Source: Candidatus Bathyarchaeia archaeon (lineage in GTDB: Archaea > Thermoproteota > Bathyarchaeia > Bathyarchaeales > Bathycorpusculaceae). From it: 27,465 nucleotides of DNA. Position numbers and translations under genes: made by a program. The stretch covers positions 1 to 27,465 of the forward strand of contig JBEKKX010000033.1 of NCBI GenBank assembly GCA_050010515.1. The letters are read 5' to 3'. The notes beneath the pieces were generated by a model that saw only the letters and a program-made list of their open reading frames with translations, had not been told where the DNA came from and made no database searches. Position 1 is the stretch's first letter, and each line of letters starts with the position of its first letter. Of the stretch, positions 3,611-18,297 are shown in pieces.

Positions 3611-3822
3611 CGGGCTTTCTCCTTTAGATTAATTTTAATCTCAAGCGCTCAAGTTTCCACTGTACTTTTCATGTTAGCGTCGATTAGCTATATTATACTT
3701 TTGGATAATACGTTAATCCGATGAACTCCCAAGCCTGTACCGTAATCTTTCAATTAGGCACAAATCCACAGAATACACCTGGATCTACGTTCAACTTGCA
3801 AAATTTACAAAATGAAGGCGCG

Positions 3823-4920
3823 CTGCCTTGTCCCGATATTATGTGTTGAAGTAGGTTGGCGAGACTGCCTTGTCTGGTCTTCCCAAGTTTTGAGCTGCTT
3901 CTCTGTTTAATACTAAGCAAAGTATGCTCAACAACGCATAAGATGCGACTTGCTTCAAACCTCTAACCTTGCTTATGATCATGCTATATTGAGTCTTCAA
4001 GAAGCTGTTTACAGCTTCTATCGGAGGCCTCTTATGATACTCTACCTTTTGGTCTTCAGGTCCATAAGTTCTAAACTTCTTGTCTACTCGCAGAGCATCT
4101 CTGGCACCTCGTTTCTGGTTGGACGGATATGGAATAATCGTCTTTTCTAGCCATTCTGATTTTGTTGTCGCTGTACTGACTGTCCGCTATCACGCTTCGC
4201 AGTTTAGTCCCTGAATTCTTCAGAACCTGCTTTGCCTTTTCAAGAATAGTCAATGAATGTTTTTTCTCGTTCTGGTTTGCTGAAGCAAACAAACTCGATA
4301 AAGGAAGCATTGTTTCAGAATCTATTGATAAATGTAGTTTGTAGCCTAAAGCAAAGGTTCTGCCTGCTCTTCCAACTCTCGCTTCTGAGTCTGAGTATCC
4401 CGTTTGGTTGTCTGTTGGGTTACGTGTGCTCCAAGCTTTGATAAAGGAAGCATCCAGCACGATGTCAACCTCTTTAGTTTGGCTGCTCTTGAGGAGCGAG
4501 ATGACTTTCTCATCGATTATTTGGTTGAGGTTGTCTTCTCCAACCTTTCGGGTGAACCTGCTTAGAACGCTTCTCGGATAAGCTGCCTCGTCTGTCTTGA
4601 TCAAGCATAGCCTTCTCAGTCTTTGGTCAACGTCAAGAATTCTTGCCATTTCCCTAAGGCTGCGAACACCTTTCATGCGCATGACGATGAACGTTCTTAA
4701 AACGCCTAATGGATTTCTCGGGGGTCTTCCTGCACCATTGGTGTGGAAGCAACTACGCAAAATGTTCTTGGCAAAGCTTAAGTCTACGTTTCTGAAGAGG
4801 ATTTCTAGGGTCTCGTGTTCATCTTGTCCCGCTAGGACTCACCTCCTGTGCATGGACGTTGTTCACAAAATACGAGATCCCTCTTCTCAAAATAAGCTTT
4901 TCAATTTCGGGACAAGCCAG
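3823..4920 (-). mobile_element. Insertion sequence (IS5/IS1182-like DDE type), about 1.1 kb, with 16-bp TIRs and CGCG flanks
   Basis: Left end CTGCCTTGTCCCGATA (3823-3838) matches the reverse complement of right end TTTCGGGACAAGCCAG (4905-4920) at 14/16. CGCG at 3819-3822 and 4921-4924 is either the TSD or the outer part of the TIR. Confidence 0.85.
3839..4835 (-). pseudogene. DDE transposase, frameshifted near 4150
   Basis: Motifs GRPPRNP...SLRE, VLDAS, GYKLHL, ADSQYS. After a frame change it continues EKTIIPYPSNQKRG...KRPPIEAVNSFLK...SPTYFNT to a stop at 3839. The frame is open up to about 4838, just after an SD-like GGAGGTGA, but there is no canonical start codon there (CTA). Confidence 0.85.
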
Positions 4921-10560: not shown

Positions 10561-12003
10561 ATGTCGGGAGCAGATGTCAAAAAACCAGAAACTCGAGAAG
10601 AATTTGTTAAAATGTTGAATGAAGCGGCGAAAAAAGAAGGCGGCTCAAAAAATAAGCCGACAAAACCGACAGTTGTCGGAACAGCAAAAGAAATGGACAT
10701 TCACAGGGATACACTTTACACGTGGTTAAAAGAGTTCAATGTCGATTTCAAAGAGATTGTTGACCATATGCCGACAATGGTTGCCAAGGGCGCTGAAGAA
10801 AATTCAGGAAGCACTTACTTAATCGGTGAATCTCTGGTTGGAGAAGGAAACGAAGTTGCACACATCGACCTGATGATAGGTGACAAGAATGGCCCAGTTG
10901 GCCAAGCATTCGCTAATGGCATGACAAGTTTATCAGCCGGTCATACGCCACTGCTGGCAGTAATAAGACCGAACTTGCCGCCGAAACCCCACACGCTAAT
11001 AGTGCCTAAAGTAACCATTAAGAACATGGAGGACACAGGAAAAATTTTTGGTCCAGCACAAGCAGCAGTTGCCAAAGCTATCGCTGATTCTGCAGAAGAG
11101 GGAATTATTCCCGCAGACAAACTTGATGACTGGGTTATAATTTGCAGCGTATTTGTTCATCCGCAAGCAAGCGATTACCGAAGAATATACCAGTATAATT
11201 ATGGCGCAACAAAAATGGCGCTTCAACGAGCATTAAAGAATTACCCATCACAGGAAAAGATAATTTATGAGAAAGACCGCGCAAAGCATCCGATAATGGG
11301 CTTTAAAGTTCCACGCTTATGGAGACCACCATACCTGCAGATTTCTATGGATGCACCTGAGCTTGAGAAAACCAAAAAAATCCTCGCTCAACTTCCAGGA
11401 AGTGACAGAATCATCATTGAAGCCGGAACACCACTAATCAAACGTTACGGAACAAGAGTAATCAGCGACCTGAGACAAGTAGCGAAAGACTCGTTCATAG
11501 TTGCAGACCTAAAAACCCTTGACGTTGGAAAAGTCGAAGTAGACATAGCATATGAAGACACCGCAGACGCAGTGGTTGCTGCTGGATTGGCGCCTCCTGA
11601 AACTCTTGATGCGTTCGTTCATGAAGCCAAAAGACTTGGAATATACGCGGTTATAGACATGCTAAATGTTGAAGATGTTCTTGGAAAACTTGAGTCACTC
11701 AAAGAGTTCCCAGACGTCGTAATATTGCACCGAGGAATAGATCAAGAAAGCGGAAGAACCTGCGGACTTGAACGTATAAAAATAATACGCCAAGCTTTCC
11801 CAAACAAGAAATTCCTAATAGCGGTTGCAGGCGGAATAGTACCAGAAACAGCCAAAGAAGCTTTAGAGCAAGGTGCTGACATCCTAATCGTCGGAAGATA
11901 CGTAACACAATCAAAAGACATTGAACGCTCAGTAAGAGACTTCCTTGAGCTAACACCAAGCATGCGAGAAGACATCGACTTATTCAGAGTCCACACAGAA
12001 TAA
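10561..12003 (+). CDS. fae-hps: Bifunctional formaldehyde-activating enzyme / 3-hexulose-6-phosphate synthase with an extra N-terminal HTH
   Basis: Fae: [46 protein letters not shown]: [45 protein letters not shown]. Confidence 0.95.
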
Positions 12004-13706: not shown

Positions 13707-13942
13707 AGAACGGCTTCAAAGATGCATTAAAGCTTTTGCATGAAAAATACTAAGTTGTTTGAAAAGCAGGCATAGAGCTAAAATTTTTCATAAATCCTTA
13801 TCGGGTAATCTGTGGAGACATCTCCCGCAACCAATTTCTTTTTTTACAACAGGAAAGCCAAAATTCAAGTACCCATCTTATTTTTATACTTGCTGAAAAA
13901 GATAACATCAGTCACGTAATTGTAGTGGGAATGATGAGTTAG

Positions 13943-14572
13943 ATGCTTAAGCATGAACGACTCGGCAGGAGTAACCAAGACTCCGTTGCAATTGGTCTAT
14001 GCGGAGAGATGTATTCTGGGAAAGACACAGCCGCTGATTACATTGTTTCAAAATACGGTTTTAGGAAATTTAGTTACAGCACTGATGTTTTAAAGCCAAT
14101 AATCTCTTTTTGTCAAGGAAAAGAGACACGAGAAGTATACATTAATCTTGGCGCTTCGCTTGACAAAGTGTTTGGAGACTTTTGTCTTGACTCGCTTTTG
14201 CACAGAAGAATTAGCCAAGAAGCCAGCAAAAAAGTAGTAATTCCAAATATTAGGCTCTTTAACAATGTTGACTACTGGAAGAACGCGAGCGGCTTTGAGT
14301 TTTACTTAATTCTTGTGTTAGCAGAACAGAGGTTGAGGCTCAGCAGGTGGATGAAGCTATTGTCTGAGAAACCTTTGCACGAATATGACAAGGCGCTCAA
14401 GACCAAAGAGGATTTTGAGATTTTAAATAGGAAGGACTTGGAGGAGACGGATTTGTTTAATTTACTGCATAACCGAAAATTCGACTTTACAATTGTCAAC
14501 AACTCGGATTTAATGAACTTGTACGTTCAAATTGATACAATAATGAAGGTTATTGAAAAAAAGCCTACTTGA
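13943..14572 (+). CDS. P-loop nucleoside/deoxynucleoside-monophosphate kinase-like protein (dNMP kinase / UPF0200-like)
   Basis: IGLCGEMYSGKDTAADYI (Walker A), GFRKFSYS.DVLK, VVIPNIR, R..R lid, DFTIVNN. Confidence 0.8.
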   Translation: MLKHERLGRSNQDSVAIGLCGEMYSGKDTAADYIVSKYGFRKFSYSTDVLKPIISFCQGKETREVYINLGASLDKVFGDFCLDSLLHRRISQEASKKVVIPNIRLFNNVDYWKNASGFEFYLILVLAEQRLRLSRWMKLLSEKPLHEYDKALKTKEDFEILNRKDLEETDLFNLLHNRKFDFTIVNNSDLMNLYVQIDTIMKVIEKKPT

Positions 14573-14707
14573 TTTTCCCTCCTAAAAAATGAACACCAAA
14601 AGAGCTAGTCAGATGATTTCCCAATTAAAATTTTTACCAAACTTTCGGTATTTATGAGTTCATCGCTTATATAGATAATGAACTGAATATTAAGCGAGGT
14701 CATCAAG

Positions 14708-15052
14708 TTGGACTCTGCGGAAATGTTTGTTGCAATTGTAGGTTTGTCAGCTGCAACCTTAGTGATATTGTGTGCTATCTATTTAGATTACAGAGTCAAA
14801 TCTAAGAGGCTGACCCTAATTGGCAGAGGCATCTGGAAGATAGAGTATGACCAAACAAGACAGAAAAACGCTGTTCTTGCCGGTTCGGCTTTAATAGCAA
14901 TGGGGATATCAATTCTTGTCGGAACCTTCTCACCTGGTGGGGTTTGGTCCAGAATAGAGTTATCAGTAGGGTTAGCTCTTATAATGGTTGGAGGCATGTT
15001 TGTCGCAAATCATCTATTTAGGGACTGTCGCATGAATGCTAGCCAGAAGTGA
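14708..15052 (+). CDS. Small 3-TM membrane protein (DUF6249-like)
   Basis: TM, then KRLTLIGRG, then two TMs, resembling the DUF6249 pattern; overlaps the next gene's start. Confidence 0.6.
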   Translation: MDSAEMFVAIVGLSAATLVILCAIYLDYRVKSKRLTLIGRGIWKIEYDQTRQKNAVLAGSALIAMGISILVGTFSPGGVWSRIELSVGLALIMVGGMFVANHLFRDCRMNASQK

Positions 15053-16433
15053 AACAATGGATTCTTTCTTTGATGTTGTAATAGTCGGCGCCGGTCCTTC
15101 CGGCTTAATGGCTGCATATGAGCTTAGTTCTAAAACTAGATGCTCCATATGCATAATGGACATGGGAACTGAAGTTTCCTCAAGAGAGTGCGGACTCATA
15201 ACTTATGGAAAATGTCAAAGATGTGAAACTTGCAAGGTTGTTCACGGTTTTGCTGGGGCTGGTCTTTTTTCGGACGGAAAGCTTTGTTTATCTAACAAAG
15301 TTGGTGAGCGATTGGGGGATACGAACAAATTTACTCCTGCCCTCGTCAAAACAGTTGACAAATTCCTCGGGGTTCAGGCTCAGGAAAAACAAAGTTCAAA
15401 GAAACATGCCGATCGAATGAAGAAGATTGCAGATGAGGCAGGATTAGGTTTAGAACTTTATCCGGTGAAGGCAATACCGCATAAAGAATCCGTAGGTTTT
15501 CTTTCGGGATTACAGAGAGAAATCTACGCACGAAGGGTTACTTTCTATGCTAACGCCTATGTCTCAGAGTTTCATAAACTTCCTTCGGGAGAATGGGAGA
15601 CTGTTGCAAAAAAGCAAGGCGGAAATTTCATTATTCGATCTCGCTTTCTTCTCATAGGGATAGGAAAATCTGGATCTCGGTGGCTGATTGAACAGCTTTC
15701 TAAGCTAGGAGTAGAATCGAAGCCAACGGCTTTCTATTTTGGGGTTCGAATAGAAACCAAACGAGAAATAATGAATAATGTTATGAGATTATCATACAAC
15801 CCGAAGTTCTTCGCTGGAAAAGATGGTCCTTTTTATGTAAAGTCCCACTGCTTCGCGGAGGGCGGGTGCGTAATCGCCTATGTCTATGATGGCATAATAG
15901 TGGCTGGAGGGTTCACTGACAACACAAATAATACAAGTTTCTCTGTGCTGGTAAAGCATAACCCTCCTTTTCCCTTTCGTACAGTCGACTATTCGCGCTG
16001 GATGTGTGAGCTGATCAATCATTTAGGAAAGAACAAAGTTATTCTTCAAAGATTGGGCGATTTTAAAGAGGGAAGAGCGTCAAAAAGGATTGATATTGAG
16101 AACAATCTTGTTACGCCTACAATGAAAGATTATTCCCTTTATAATCTGTCATCTTTCTTTGAGAAGAACATCCGTTTTGTGATTCTGGATTTCATCAAAA
16201 AACTTGATTGTCTCTGCTCTGGTCTGGACAAGGAGTCAACACTTGTTTATGGTCCTGCTTCTGAGTGGGTTGTCGACAGAATCTCTCTTAACAGTGAGAT
16301 GGAGACAATTTGCGAGAACCTGTACGTGATAGGTGATGGATCCGGAGCAACGCAGGGGATCGTTGCAGCCGCCTCGACTGGACTCATAGCTGCACAGAGC
16401 GTAGCAGATAAAATTTCAAAGACTGTTATCTAA
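15036..16433 (+). CDS. FAD-dependent oxidoreductase (COG2509-like) with a Cys cluster
   Basis: DVVIVGAGPSG, C-x6-C-x2-C-x2-C, GFAGAGLFSDGKL, GVRIET, NLYVIGDGSGATQGIVAAASTG; start may be 15057. Confidence 0.9.
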   Translation: MLARSETMDSFFDVVIVGAGPSGLMAAYELSSKTRCSICIMDMGTEVSSRECGLITYGKCQRCETCKVVHGFAGAGLFSDGKLCLSNKVGERLGDTNKFTPALVKTVDKFLGVQAQEKQSSKKHADRMKKIADEAGLGLELYPVKAIPHKESVGFLSGLQREIYARRVTFYANAYVSEFHKLPSGEWETVAKKQGGNFIIRSRFLLIGIGKSGSRWLIEQLSKLGVESKPTAFYFGVRIETKREIMNNVMRLSYNPKFFAGKDGPFYVKSHCFAEGGCVIAYVYDGIIVAGGFTDNTNNTSFSVLVKHNPPFPFRTVDYSRWMCELINHLGKNKVILQRLGDFKEGRASKRIDIENNLVTPTMKDYSLYNLSSFFEKNIRFVILDFIKKLDCLCSGLDKESTLVYGPASEWVVDRISLNSEMETICENLYVIGDGSGATQGIVAAASTGLIAAQSVADKISKTVI

Positions 16434-16456
16434 TGAATTCTTGATATTCCATGTTC

Positions 16457-17107
16457 TTATAATCCGAGCAGTAGTTTCCCAATTAACAATCCCAATATTG
16501 CAATAACGATAGTAATGATTGTGAGGAACTGTGTATAGAAGCGGTCGACCTTTTTGGTAAGTTGAGTTTTCATCTCTTTAAAGTCGTCGCTGAGCGCCTT
16601 TAAACCACTCTCGGGCAAGATTTCTTTCACGACATCAGGAATATGATCAGAACGTTGGAATGCACCACTATACACTTCGGCAGTGCTTTGAGTAGTTTCG
16701 AATTCTATTGTTGCGAAAGTCTTATTGTAGGTGAGGATCACGGGTCTATCTGTCAAATTATAGAGCAGACAGAATAGTCTACCTTTATATCCAGGATCGA
16801 TTTGCGGTTCATTGTTCAAAACCAATCCCTTCATCGCCAGGCTAAATCTTAAACCAAACCGGGCAATCAAATTTTCTGGAATGTTGACTTTCTCTTGGGT
16901 GCAAACTACAACGAGGTCGTGCGCTGGAATCTCTAAGTATGGCGCTGTTTTTTCATCCAGTTTATAATATTGCCCCCCTCTTAGATACTCATCCCCTAAT
17001 CGCAGGTCATATGATGCAGGTTTCAAAGAATCAGGTTGGAAATCTTCAACTAGCGGTGGATCGATGTTGACTCGATTTAATATCTCACTCTTTGTTAGAA
17101 TTGGCAT
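16457..17107 (-). CDS. dCTP deaminase/dUTPase-fold protein with C-terminal coiled coil and TM helix; catalytic residues degenerate
   Basis: PASYDLRLG, TQEKVNIP, IDPGYKG, YSGAFQ; ends FLTIITIVIAILGLLIGKLLLGL; start adjusted to ATG 17107. Confidence 0.85.
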   Translation of the reverse strand: MPILTKSEILNRVNIDPPLVEDFQPDSLKPASYDLRLGDEYLRGGQYYKLDEKTAPYLEIPAHDLVVVCTQEKVNIPENLIARFGLRFSLAMKGLVLNNEPQIDPGYKGRLFCLLYNLTDRPVILTYNKTFATIEFETTQSTAEVYSGAFQRSDHIPDVVKEILPESGLKALSDDFKEMKTQLTKKVDRFYTQFLTIITIVIAILGLLIGKLLLGL

Positions 17108-17253
17108 TATTATCAACCAAAATGACGTTCATCTGAAGATGAATTTAAGTCTTTTTGGTCTCAAATCGTCCGAGGTTCTCTAAAATTCTGGAATATTATA
17201 TTCAAAAAATGTTGATGGCAATGCTTAAGAAAGATTGTGATCCACTCAGATAC

Positions 17254-17889
17254 ATGAATCCTCGCGAAAACAGGAAACTGAAACGTTCTTTCTATGAAAA
17301 CGATCCGTTTACTGTCTGTAAGGATATGCTGGGCAAGTTAATCGTTAATCAAAGTAATTGTGGCATAATGACTGGCGAGATCGTTGAAACAGAAGTATAC
17401 ATTGGACCAGATGACAAGGCTTCGCATGCCTATTGTAATAAGAGAACAAAGAGAACGTCAGTGCAATTTGGGGAAAGGGGGCACGCATACATTTTCAGGG
17501 TGTATGGAATGTACAATTGTTTTTGTGCTGTTGTTGGACCTCCTTATGTACCTGCAGTTGTTCTGGTCAGAGCCGTGAGACCCATTGATGGGATTGACTT
17601 TATGAGAAAGAACCGCAGATTAAGCGCGGGTGCTCCTATTCACAAGTTAACTAATGGACCCTCAAAATTCTGCCAGGCCTATGGAATCACAGATGAGCTT
17701 AACGGTATCGATCTTCTTGGACAGAAACTATTTTTATGCGAACAAGAACAGTCAGAATTTAAAATTGCCACCTCAGCGAGAGTTGGAATTGATTATGCTG
17801 AGGAATACAAAGATGTCTGTTGGAGGTTCTACAAGGAAGGTGACATCTTTGTGTCAAAAGTAATCACAAAGAGAGACGCAAAACATTAG
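17254..17889 (+). CDS. mpg: DNA-3-methyladenine glycosylase, AAG/MPG family
   Basis: LGKLIV, IVETEVY, DKASHAY, YGMY, VLVRA, NGPSK, RVGI, WRFY; start uncertain (17209-17254). Confidence 0.93.
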   Translation: MNPRENRKLKRSFYENDPFTVCKDMLGKLIVNQSNCGIMTGEIVETEVYIGPDDKASHAYCNKRTKRTSVQFGERGHAYIFRVYGMYNCFCAVVGPPYVPAVVLVRAVRPIDGIDFMRKNRRLSAGAPIHKLTNGPSKFCQAYGITDELNGIDLLGQKLFLCEQEQSEFKIATSARVGIDYAEEYKDVCWRFYKEGDIFVSKVITKRDAKH

Positions 17890-18297
17890 ACTTGGAAACT
17901 AAGTTTAGGGTCGAGGGCACGGAAAACTCATGTGATGCTTAAAACAGCGCCGACCAGCCAAGCTTGACTCTACTCCTTCATTTTGTCTAATTCTATTAAC
18001 AGCCAGAATGGCTTAAGGCTCCTTGTCATCAATTTCTCTTTGGGAAAATTAATCTACACTACTATTATCCTCGACATAAGAGAGCATTTAAGTTTTTAAA
18101 AAAATATTCCGTCCTAAATGTGTACTAAACTCCTTATGTAAACTAAACTTAATCAGCGAGATGATATGTCTCACATTATTTCGCGTTTAAGCGAGATTGT
18201 GGCTGTTGAAACAAAATGGACTCATGATATCTTTAAAAGCTAAGCTCTAGATTAAGTAATTTATTAAATTGAATTTGTTGGGATAGCGGGAGTGAAT

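Follow-up and report, generated by a model that had tools for sequence, protein, structure and literature searches.

The gene P0001 lies on the minus strand of a 27,465-nt contig from a Candidatus Bathyarchaeia archaeon (JBEKKX010000033.1, positions 1 to 27,465; this whole stretch is called the window below) and codes for a tail-anchored member of the Dcd-like deoxyuridine triphosphatase (dUTPase) clade. The feature is real and conserved, and is an architectural variant of a known fold. The explanation that we favour, with a confidence slightly short of even, is that P0001 is the membrane-tethered, deoxynucleoside triphosphate (dNTP)-binding subunit, probably a pyrophosphatase, of a mobile cassette whose products edit DNA bases and the dNTP pool, likely against phages.

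The open reading frame (ORF) of P0001 starts with an ATG at 17107 and its last codon is 16460-16462. An alternative TTG start, three codons upstream of the ATG, would give a product of 219 aa; the ATG is favoured because homologues begin MPILTK or MGILTK. The parts of the gene are as follows.

16460..17107, minus strand: P0001 coding sequence, a tail-anchored Dcd/dUTPase-like protein of 216 aa, with its stop codon at 16457-16459
16628..17107, minus strand: Dcd/dUTPase-fold domain (residues 1-160), with SYDLRLG, R87, GPQIDPG with D104, Y107, C113, L114 in the Glu column, FATIEF and Y146-x-G-x-F-Q
16532..16627, minus strand: linker with the conserved motif LPxSGLxxL, and helical stalk (residues 161-192)
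16460..16531, minus strand: predicted C-terminal hydrophobic membrane anchor (residues 193-216)

The Pfam family DCD (PF22769) covers residues 3-138 of P0001 (E 2.3e-18), and the dCTP-deaminase equivalog model TIGR02274 gives 77.8 bits, under its cut-off of 92.8. An AlphaFold2 model built from a 51-row alignment of the wider family (predicted local distance difference test, pLDDT, 95.5) has a beta domain followed by an unbroken helix at residues 168-214, and Foldseek gives P0001 a probability of 1.00 against Dcd structures. All the strings quoted in the initial annotation of this gene were located in the protein, so that the motifs SYDLRLG, IDPGY and Y.G.FQ are kept as it said: SYDLRLG lies at residue 32, RFSLAMKG at residue 87 and YSGAFQ at residues 146-151, and from residue 103 onward the sequence reads IDPGYKGRLFCLLYN. 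Its appended hydrophobic C-terminus was recovered both in the model and in the hydropathy profile, where the top 19-residue window begins at residue 197 (Kyte-Doolittle mean 2.63); the coiled coil that it also described corresponds only to a predicted helix. P0001 is predicted to carry a C-terminal membrane anchor.

The catalytic residues of the deaminase, which we take to be Ser111, Arg115 and Glu138 in the numbering of E. coli Dcd, are all replaced in P0001, in agreement with the initial annotation. In a HMMER alignment, Phe88 takes the position of the first Ser, and Met92 that of the last Arg, in the M. jannaschii sequence GRSSLGR, and Leu114 aligns with the column that is A in 2hxd and Q in 3gf0, entries whose Foldseek titles describe them as the E145A and E145Q variants of M. 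jannaschii DCD-DUT. The same columns were obtained from a MAFFT alignment with a canonical Dcd from a genome of the same genus (locus L009, GRSSLGRLGL...TCELTN), and neither alignment restored the catalytic residues. Glu was absent from the deaminase column in all family proteins and genome-locus homologues examined (0/99 and 0/78, respectively). P0001 thus has the fold and the Pfam family of Dcd and DCD-DUT (E. coli 1xs1/2v9x; M. jannaschii 1ogh/2hxd/3gf0), but differs from them in having Leu, Phe and Met in the Glu, Ser and Arg columns, in its score against TIGR02274 and in its predicted membrane anchor. Three of the four features that define Dcd are missing, and, judged by the usual residues, P0001 is not a dCTP deaminase.

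The sequences of solved structure closest to P0001 are 8y1w (E 3.3e-19) and 9ln0 (E 1.3e-18), chains of 155-156 aa deposited as dCTP deaminase, whose Foldseek titles are Thermococcus pacificus dUTPase with dUMP and thermostable dUTPase P45, respectively. The same two entries are also its top Foldseek matches (template modelling, TM, score 0.90 by target length, 30% identity), the archaeal Dcd-like trimeric dUTPases (P. furiosus-type P45, 9ln0/9ln3; T. pacificus, 8y1w) being the closest proteins of solved structure in both sequence and fold. Where P0001 has GRLFCLLYN, 9ln0 and 8y1w read GNLTLMLFN, with Met in the Glu column, and a missing Glu is therefore normal for the dUTPase clade. Besides this absence, P0001 and the archaeal dUTPases have in common A-x-YDLR-x-G, DPG followed by an aromatic residue, the N after the strand, and a C-terminal motif that is Y-x-G-x-YQ in the dUTPases and YSGAFQ in P0001. 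In contrast, P0001 reads LRFSLAMKG for their LRSSLAREG and PQIDPG for their AWVDPG, contains Cys113, which is special to its kin, and is some 60 residues longer, because the archaeal enzymes (155-156 aa) have no linker, stalk or anchor. In sequence and fold, P0001 is nearer to a dUTPase than to a dead deaminase.

Residues around the putative pocket are strongly conserved. Three marks of the clade are kept in P0001: its Asp, which is D104 in GPQIDPG, the aromatic residue that follows (Y107), and the C-terminal motif Y-x-G-x-F/Y-Q. All 78 locus homologues share Q102 and D104; Y33, E72, G94, Q102, D104, P105, G106, G109 and N117 never vary in the 51-row alignment of the wider family, and Y146 and G148 are nearly invariant. 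This pattern appears to be that of a maintained pocket, not of decay. The initial annotation had proposed that the protein binds a nucleotide without deaminating it. The loss of deamination agrees with the replaced residues, and nucleotide binding is plausible, but the dead sensor made of it there is no better than dUTPase-type chemistry. Residual dUTPase activity through the Asp of IDPGY, its second option, is at least as good an account, because the dUTPases 9ln0 and 8y1w also lack the Glu.

Tail-anchored homologues of P0001 number in the hundreds, across bacteria and archaea. A search for homologues of near length yielded 98 relatives, a search for longer homologues yielded at least 292 protein clusters, of which 120 were listed, and a pattern scan of one genome per species yielded 272 confirmed stretches, of which the best 80 were kept and 78 loci analysed. 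With an anchor taken as a hydrophobic C-terminal segment with 12 or fewer residues beyond it, one was found in 75 of the 98 near-length relatives (12 others have a longer tail and 11, mostly apparent fragments, have none), in 119 of the 120 listed longer homologues (one with a longer tail, 0 with none), and in 59 of the 78 genome-locus ORFs (16 with a longer tail and 3 just below the threshold). Some of the longer protein clusters occur on >100 contigs.

The surroundings of these genes were compared by clustering four ORFs on each side in the 78 loci. Within this distance there was a DNA methylase in 42 loci, an HD protein in 41, a flavoprotein in 39, and a small single-pass membrane protein of 140-200 aa (155-aa type) in 19. 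Representatives were annotated as PF01555 and PADLOC MTase_II (methylase), as PF01966 (HD protein) and, weakly, as flavin adenine dinucleotide (FAD) families (flavoprotein). The commonest cassette is composed of a COG2509-type flavoprotein, a SAMHD1-like HD dNTPase and a DNA methylase. In what we call class I, the methylase, HD, flavoprotein and small membrane protein genes are co-directional and lie upstream of a gene for a fusion of the tail-anchored Dcd-like protein (Dcd-TM) to a guanylate-kinase-like (GK) domain. This domain, PF00625, is present in 119 of the 120 listed longer homologues and was found in 12 of 16 class-I-type proteins scanned; in locus L042, kinase and Dcd-TM are separate genes, side by side. 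Many class I clusters are found on 6-8-kb contigs.

A second context, class II, was seen in 9-11 loci (L039, L046, L054, L059, L064, L076, L077, L084, L086, L089, L092) and consists of an RNase_H_2/DUF429 protein and a short adenylosuccinate-synthetase-like (AdSS-like) enzyme, with a gene for a deoxynucleoside kinase (dNK) or an adenylate kinase (ADK) following; the membrane-anchored Dcd-like protein of this class has Pro in the Glu column. The AdSS-like enzyme matches archaeal AdSS with E 1e-76 and PurZ with E 1e-37 and 6e-25, and being nearer to ordinary archaeal AdSS than to PurZ, it did not lead us to adopt class II as a 2-aminoadenine cluster. Closest to P0001 is a subfamily of metagenome loci (n=14, 40-72% identity), in which the flavoprotein gene adjoins Dcd-TM in 11/14 loci and an MPG/AAG glycosylase gene in 8/14, the contigs of the remaining loci being too short for the presence of the gene to be judged. 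In L106, L107 and L109, flavoprotein, Dcd-TM and MPG form a tight co-directional operon, and L109 has HD and M78 genes as well. Since MPG is the conserved partner in the close subfamily, it seems to occupy the place of the class I methylase.

Genes typical of mobile elements flank the cassettes (integrases, a relaxase with NikA, transposases, recombinases), as do toxin- or defence-type genes (AbiEii, Fic, PIN, HNH, DruA, MmeI); the flanks in the close subfamily include an OLD-family nuclease, a PD-(D/E)XK nuclease and Fic. No signal-nucleotide synthase (CD-NTase, cyclase, TIR, Cas10) was found among the conserved neighbours in the 78 genome and 14 metagenome loci.

A third group, of stand-alone forms, keeps RS..AR and has no conserved neighbours; among the hits on viral contigs, nine of ten are stand-alone forms and one is a class I cassette. 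In a quick tree with Shimodaira-Hasegawa-like approximate likelihood ratio test (SH-aLRT) support, the cassette-linked groups cluster to the exclusion of the stand-alone forms and canonical Dcd (SH-aLRT 91), and taxonomy is thoroughly mixed. Database records of plasmids covering >=80% of a class I protein amounted to 0 of 156 matching records, and those of phages covering >=80% of P0001 to 0 of 16. Two observations were made on individual loci. L072, L078 and L079, on contigs assigned to ANME-1, Halobacteria and Heimdallarchaeota, have almost the same Dcd-like domain (branch lengths 0.006-0.085), which points to either very recent transfer by a mobile element or mis-binning. In order-level relatives (L007, L008, L010-L014), Dcd-like proteins of ca. 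172 aa keep the deaminase Glu (ALEIVN) and have VHSG in place of the IDPG of the family, the opposite loss to that in P0001.

One residue beside the Glu column, Cys113 (window 16769-16771), tracks the cassette-linked groups: it is present in 21/21 members of the close subfamily, 41/42 of class I and 10/11 of class II, and in 5/23 of the remaining family members. On a neighbouring strand, Glu135 of FATIEF (window 16703-16705) is invariant in the close subfamily and might conceivably serve as an alternative general base.

In the window, P0001 sits in an island with the following genes.

13831..21862, no strand: strain-specific island of ca. 8 kb between a major facilitator superfamily (MFS) gene and rpS6e, holding all the parts listed here
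13943..14572, plus strand: P-loop gene resembling deoxynucleoside monophosphate (dNMP) kinases, with the Walker A motif GEMYSGKD
14708..15052, plus strand: small multi-pass membrane protein, whose end overlaps the start of the flavoprotein gene
15036..16433, plus strand: COG2509/VP0956-type FAD-dependent protein with a Cys cluster, the conserved partner of Dcd-TM
17155..17889, plus strand: MPG/AAG-family DNA glycosylase, conserved partner in the subfamily
18292..20031, plus strand: homologue of SAMHD1-like HD dNTP triphosphohydrolases, related to the class I HD gene
20082..20939, minus strand: M78 metallopeptidase (ImmA/IrrE, CapP-like) with HEMGH, beside the HD gene in L109 too
21184..21711, plus strand: ORF of 175 aa at the island edge, with no family assigned and with unproven membership of the cassette

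The flavoprotein of the window matches the conserved flavoprotein cluster in 35 loci (best E 1e-37, over the full length). By fold, only VP0956 (3nlc) matches it well, the other hits being generic two-domain flavoenzymes (TM ca. 0.5); since VP0956 lacks a known function and the others are generic, the fold assigns it no function. The HD protein matches the HD cluster in 39 loci and the class I HD profile with 3.5e-31, and among solved structures it resembles SAMHD1-type dNTP triphosphohydrolases. The MPG gene, which probably starts at an internal ATG, codes for a protein that can be aligned with human AAG at ETEvY, SHa and YGMY, and it is the only MPG of the genome. Homologues of the small membrane protein in L097 and L101 match DUF6249. 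In PADLOC, the M78 peptidase matches capP (4.3e-12) and the HD protein matches dGTPase (4.3e-7), and the kinase-like protein matches dCTPase in the kinase portion of that model (1.4e-7); no PADLOC signal synthase was found in the window island.

The island occupies a variable hotspot. In most genomes of the same genus the MFS gene abuts rpS6e and the 8 kb are absent, and the slot (window 13707-21922) contains other DNA of ca. 5.2 kb in G046 and ca. 10 kb in G043. A search of 40 relatives, 24 belonging to the same genus, gave no close homologue of P0001 (best match E 9.3e-10, 34% identity). Of these 24 genomes, 19 lacked any Dcd-family match, so that the genus gets by without a Dcd-family gene. 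P0001 is the sole Dcd/dUTPase-superfamily gene found in this 98.5%-complete genome, which has a dCMP-deaminase-family gene and a ThyA-like gene. There are no flanking direct repeats of note at the island ends, no tRNA gene in the window, and no replication or virion genes in the island.

At least half of the sampled words of the island DNA (13900-21000) were present in 20 DNA runs from 19 studies dated 2014-2025, and eight of these runs may be the source of that DNA; no RNA run appeared among the matches listed. Near the hotspot there is a second variable piece (window 22454-23704) with a DUF4760 gene. A repeat of ca. 190 bp that looks like a miniature inverted-repeat transposable element (MITE) is present at window 22542-22730 and, on the minus strand, at 3818-4006, with many copies of 75-86% identity in this genome and in others of the genus. 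Elsewhere in the window (10561-12003) there is a fusion of Fae and an orotidine-monophosphate (OMP)-decarboxylase-family domain (Fae-Hps type), with an N-terminal extension of ca. 85 aa that gives a weak helix-turn-helix match.

Two kinds of known systems resemble this arrangement in part. Nucleotide-depletion defences include the dCTP deaminase/AvcD type, made of a P-loop kinase-like domain and a zinc deaminase, and the dGTPase/SAMHD1-like type (PADLOC PDLC02373 and PDLC02374). As in these, the cassette pairs P-loop kinase-like modules with modules that handle dCTP or dUTP, and it has an HD dNTPase. However, its Dcd-TM module has the trimeric Dcd/dUTPase fold and not the zinc cytidine-deaminase fold of the defensive dCTP deaminase, so the likeness to the P-loop-plus-deaminase enzymes is one of analogy only; the flavoprotein, the methylase or glycosylase and the membrane anchor are also without counterpart there. 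Against the PADLOC nucleotide-depletion models, P0001 gave no match and its neighbours only the weak partial matches given above. The transmembrane effectors of nucleotide-signalling immunity (CBASS Cap14/Cap15, Pycsar transmembrane effectors, CRISPR Cam1/Csx23) resemble P0001 in that it joins a putative nucleotide-binding domain to a membrane segment in a variable island, but P0001 lacks a linked signal synthase and a SAVED, CARF or cyclic nucleotide monophosphate (cNMP)-binding domain, and has a single tail anchor. The paper PMC12697855 deals with zinc-type phage dCTP deaminases and has no bearing on the P0001 family.

In the explanation that we favour, the cytoplasmic dUTPase/Dcd-fold domain would bind a 2'-deoxynucleotide at the cytoplasmic face of the membrane, to which the conserved linker and one long helix would tether it, probably as a trimer by analogy with other proteins of this fold. 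P0001 would then split a dNTP into dNMP and pyrophosphate, or hand the nucleotide to partner enzymes, which in the window would be the COG2509-type flavoprotein, the MPG/AAG glycosylase, the SAMHD1-like HD dNTPase and the nucleotide kinase. Acting together, the genes of the cassette would alter both the dNTP pool and the base composition of DNA, most plausibly as a system against phages or other mobile genetic elements. A role in conflict is favoured because of the island and mobile-element context and of the parallels with dNTP-depleting defences.

Several points weigh against this explanation. P0001 does not have the full Arg-Ser-Ser of dUTPase motif II: it retains Arg87, but in its whole close subfamily Phe or Leu takes the place of the first Ser, and in 40 of 42 class I proteins the position of R87 is T, S, K or A; with the motif-II Ser and Arg so altered, pyrophosphatase chemistry may be impaired or changed. 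Among the partners, the kinase-like gene of the window is conserved beside the cassette only in L097 and L098, and, within the close subfamily, an HD gene is near the cassette only in the window and in L109. The window kinase gave no blastp match to the fused GK domains and a best E of 3.1 with hidden Markov models (HMM), so that, lacking detectable homology, the two are not claimed to be equivalent. Since models for P0001, for the flavoprotein and for the class I fusion are all missing from PADLOC, it gives the defence role no direct support. The ORFs of the loci were called crudely, by a longest-ORF heuristic, and the explanation leaves the role of the membrane anchor unaccounted for.

The strongest of the rival explanations, although an unlikely one in our estimate, is that the cassette makes a non-canonical deoxynucleotide that marks or protects the DNA of the host or of the element. 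The Dcd-like domain would convert a dNTP to dNMP, the flavoprotein and methylase (in class II, the AdSS-like enzyme) would modify it, a kinase would re-phosphorylate it and the HD dNTPase would eliminate the canonical dNTP that competes with it, in keeping with the logic of phage hypermodification pathways such as T4 gp56/gp42/gp1 and DatZ/MazZ/PurZ. The genes for the pyrophosphatase-like protein, kinase and HD dNTPase do co-occur, fused or adjacent, the flavoprotein is conserved, and Cys113 by the pocket is invariant only in the cassette-linked classes. Class II supplies an AdSS-like enzyme, kin to archaeal AdSS and more distantly to PurZ, together with dNK or ADK, and one class I cassette and nine stand-alone forms are on viral contigs. 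Nevertheless, the AdSS-like gene is nearer to archaeal AdSS than to PurZ, the window island has no replication or virion genes, and an MPG glycosylase suits the removal of a base more than its synthesis. The initial annotation had seen instead a protein that binds a nucleotide without deaminating it and signals or disrupts the membrane. Developed further, this would be a dead nucleotide sensor in which ligand binding would make the helix, perhaps with the small membrane protein, disrupt the membrane and abort infection, and this we consider quite unlikely. It keeps some weight because the phosphate-binding motif II is degraded and there are small membrane partners (the 155-aa type in 19/78 loci; the DUF6249-like protein in the window, L097 and L101); a nearly universal membrane segment and the CapP-like M78 peptidase in the island would also fit. 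This sensor-pore reading is weakly supported, because none of the conserved neighbours in the 78 and 14 loci looks like a signal-nucleotide synthase. The conserved partners there are metabolic or DNA enzymes, and D104, Q102 and the C-terminal motif are conserved as an active site would be. As for membrane disruption, most members have just one tail anchor followed by no more than 12 residues, which makes a poor candidate for a pore and suits tethering better.

We regard as very unlikely, and as the least probable of all, a housekeeping role without any part in conflict, in which P0001 would be a membrane-bound sanitiser of the nucleotide pool, of dUTPase or dITPase type, acting along with base excision repair by MPG. 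That P0001 and the island MPG, with its ETEvY and SHa aligned to human AAG, are the only genes of their kinds found in a nearly complete genome would agree with such a role, as would the fact that its nearest structures are true dUTPases. Against it, the gene is in a strain-specific island, no orthologue was found in the 24 same-genus genomes, 19 of which have no Dcd-family match, the genome has dCMP-deaminase-family and ThyA-like genes, and the family is scattered over phyla beside mobile-element genes. We also considered, as a rather improbable extension, that the Cys113-bearing tail-anchored branch has acquired a new chemistry or specificity, within a membrane complex with the COG2509 flavoprotein for the synthesis or breakdown of a non-canonical dNTP. 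The pocket would then be surrounded by an invariant Cys and hydrophobic residues where deaminases have Ser, Arg and Glu; the substrates might be purine nucleotides, to which the guanylate-kinase-like, AdSS-like, ADK and MPG partners point, or the reaction might be a Cys-assisted, flavin-dependent base modification.

The fold of P0001 is a textbook one. What is unusual is the tail-anchored architecture, usually fused to a guanylate-kinase-like domain, and the fixed partnership with a VP0956/COG2509 flavoprotein, plus a SAMHD1-like dNTPase and a methylase or glycosylase. We found no description of this architecture or cassette in PADLOC or in the literature (supplements lying outside the scope of the latter), and the mobile cassette marked by the Dcd-TM gene is apparently undescribed. 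If the Cys113-bearing branch does have a new chemistry, small mobile elements would be carrying, in the cassette of five genes (small membrane protein, flavoprotein, HD dNTPase, methylase and GK-Dcd-TM) and in its MPG variant, a new system for DNA modification or for defence against phages. More generally, if the cassette is a defence or DNA-modification system, it would represent a new means for cells or mobile elements to manipulate dNTP pools, would provide a first function for COG2509 flavoproteins, and would be a case of a dUTPase fold rebuilt for another substrate.

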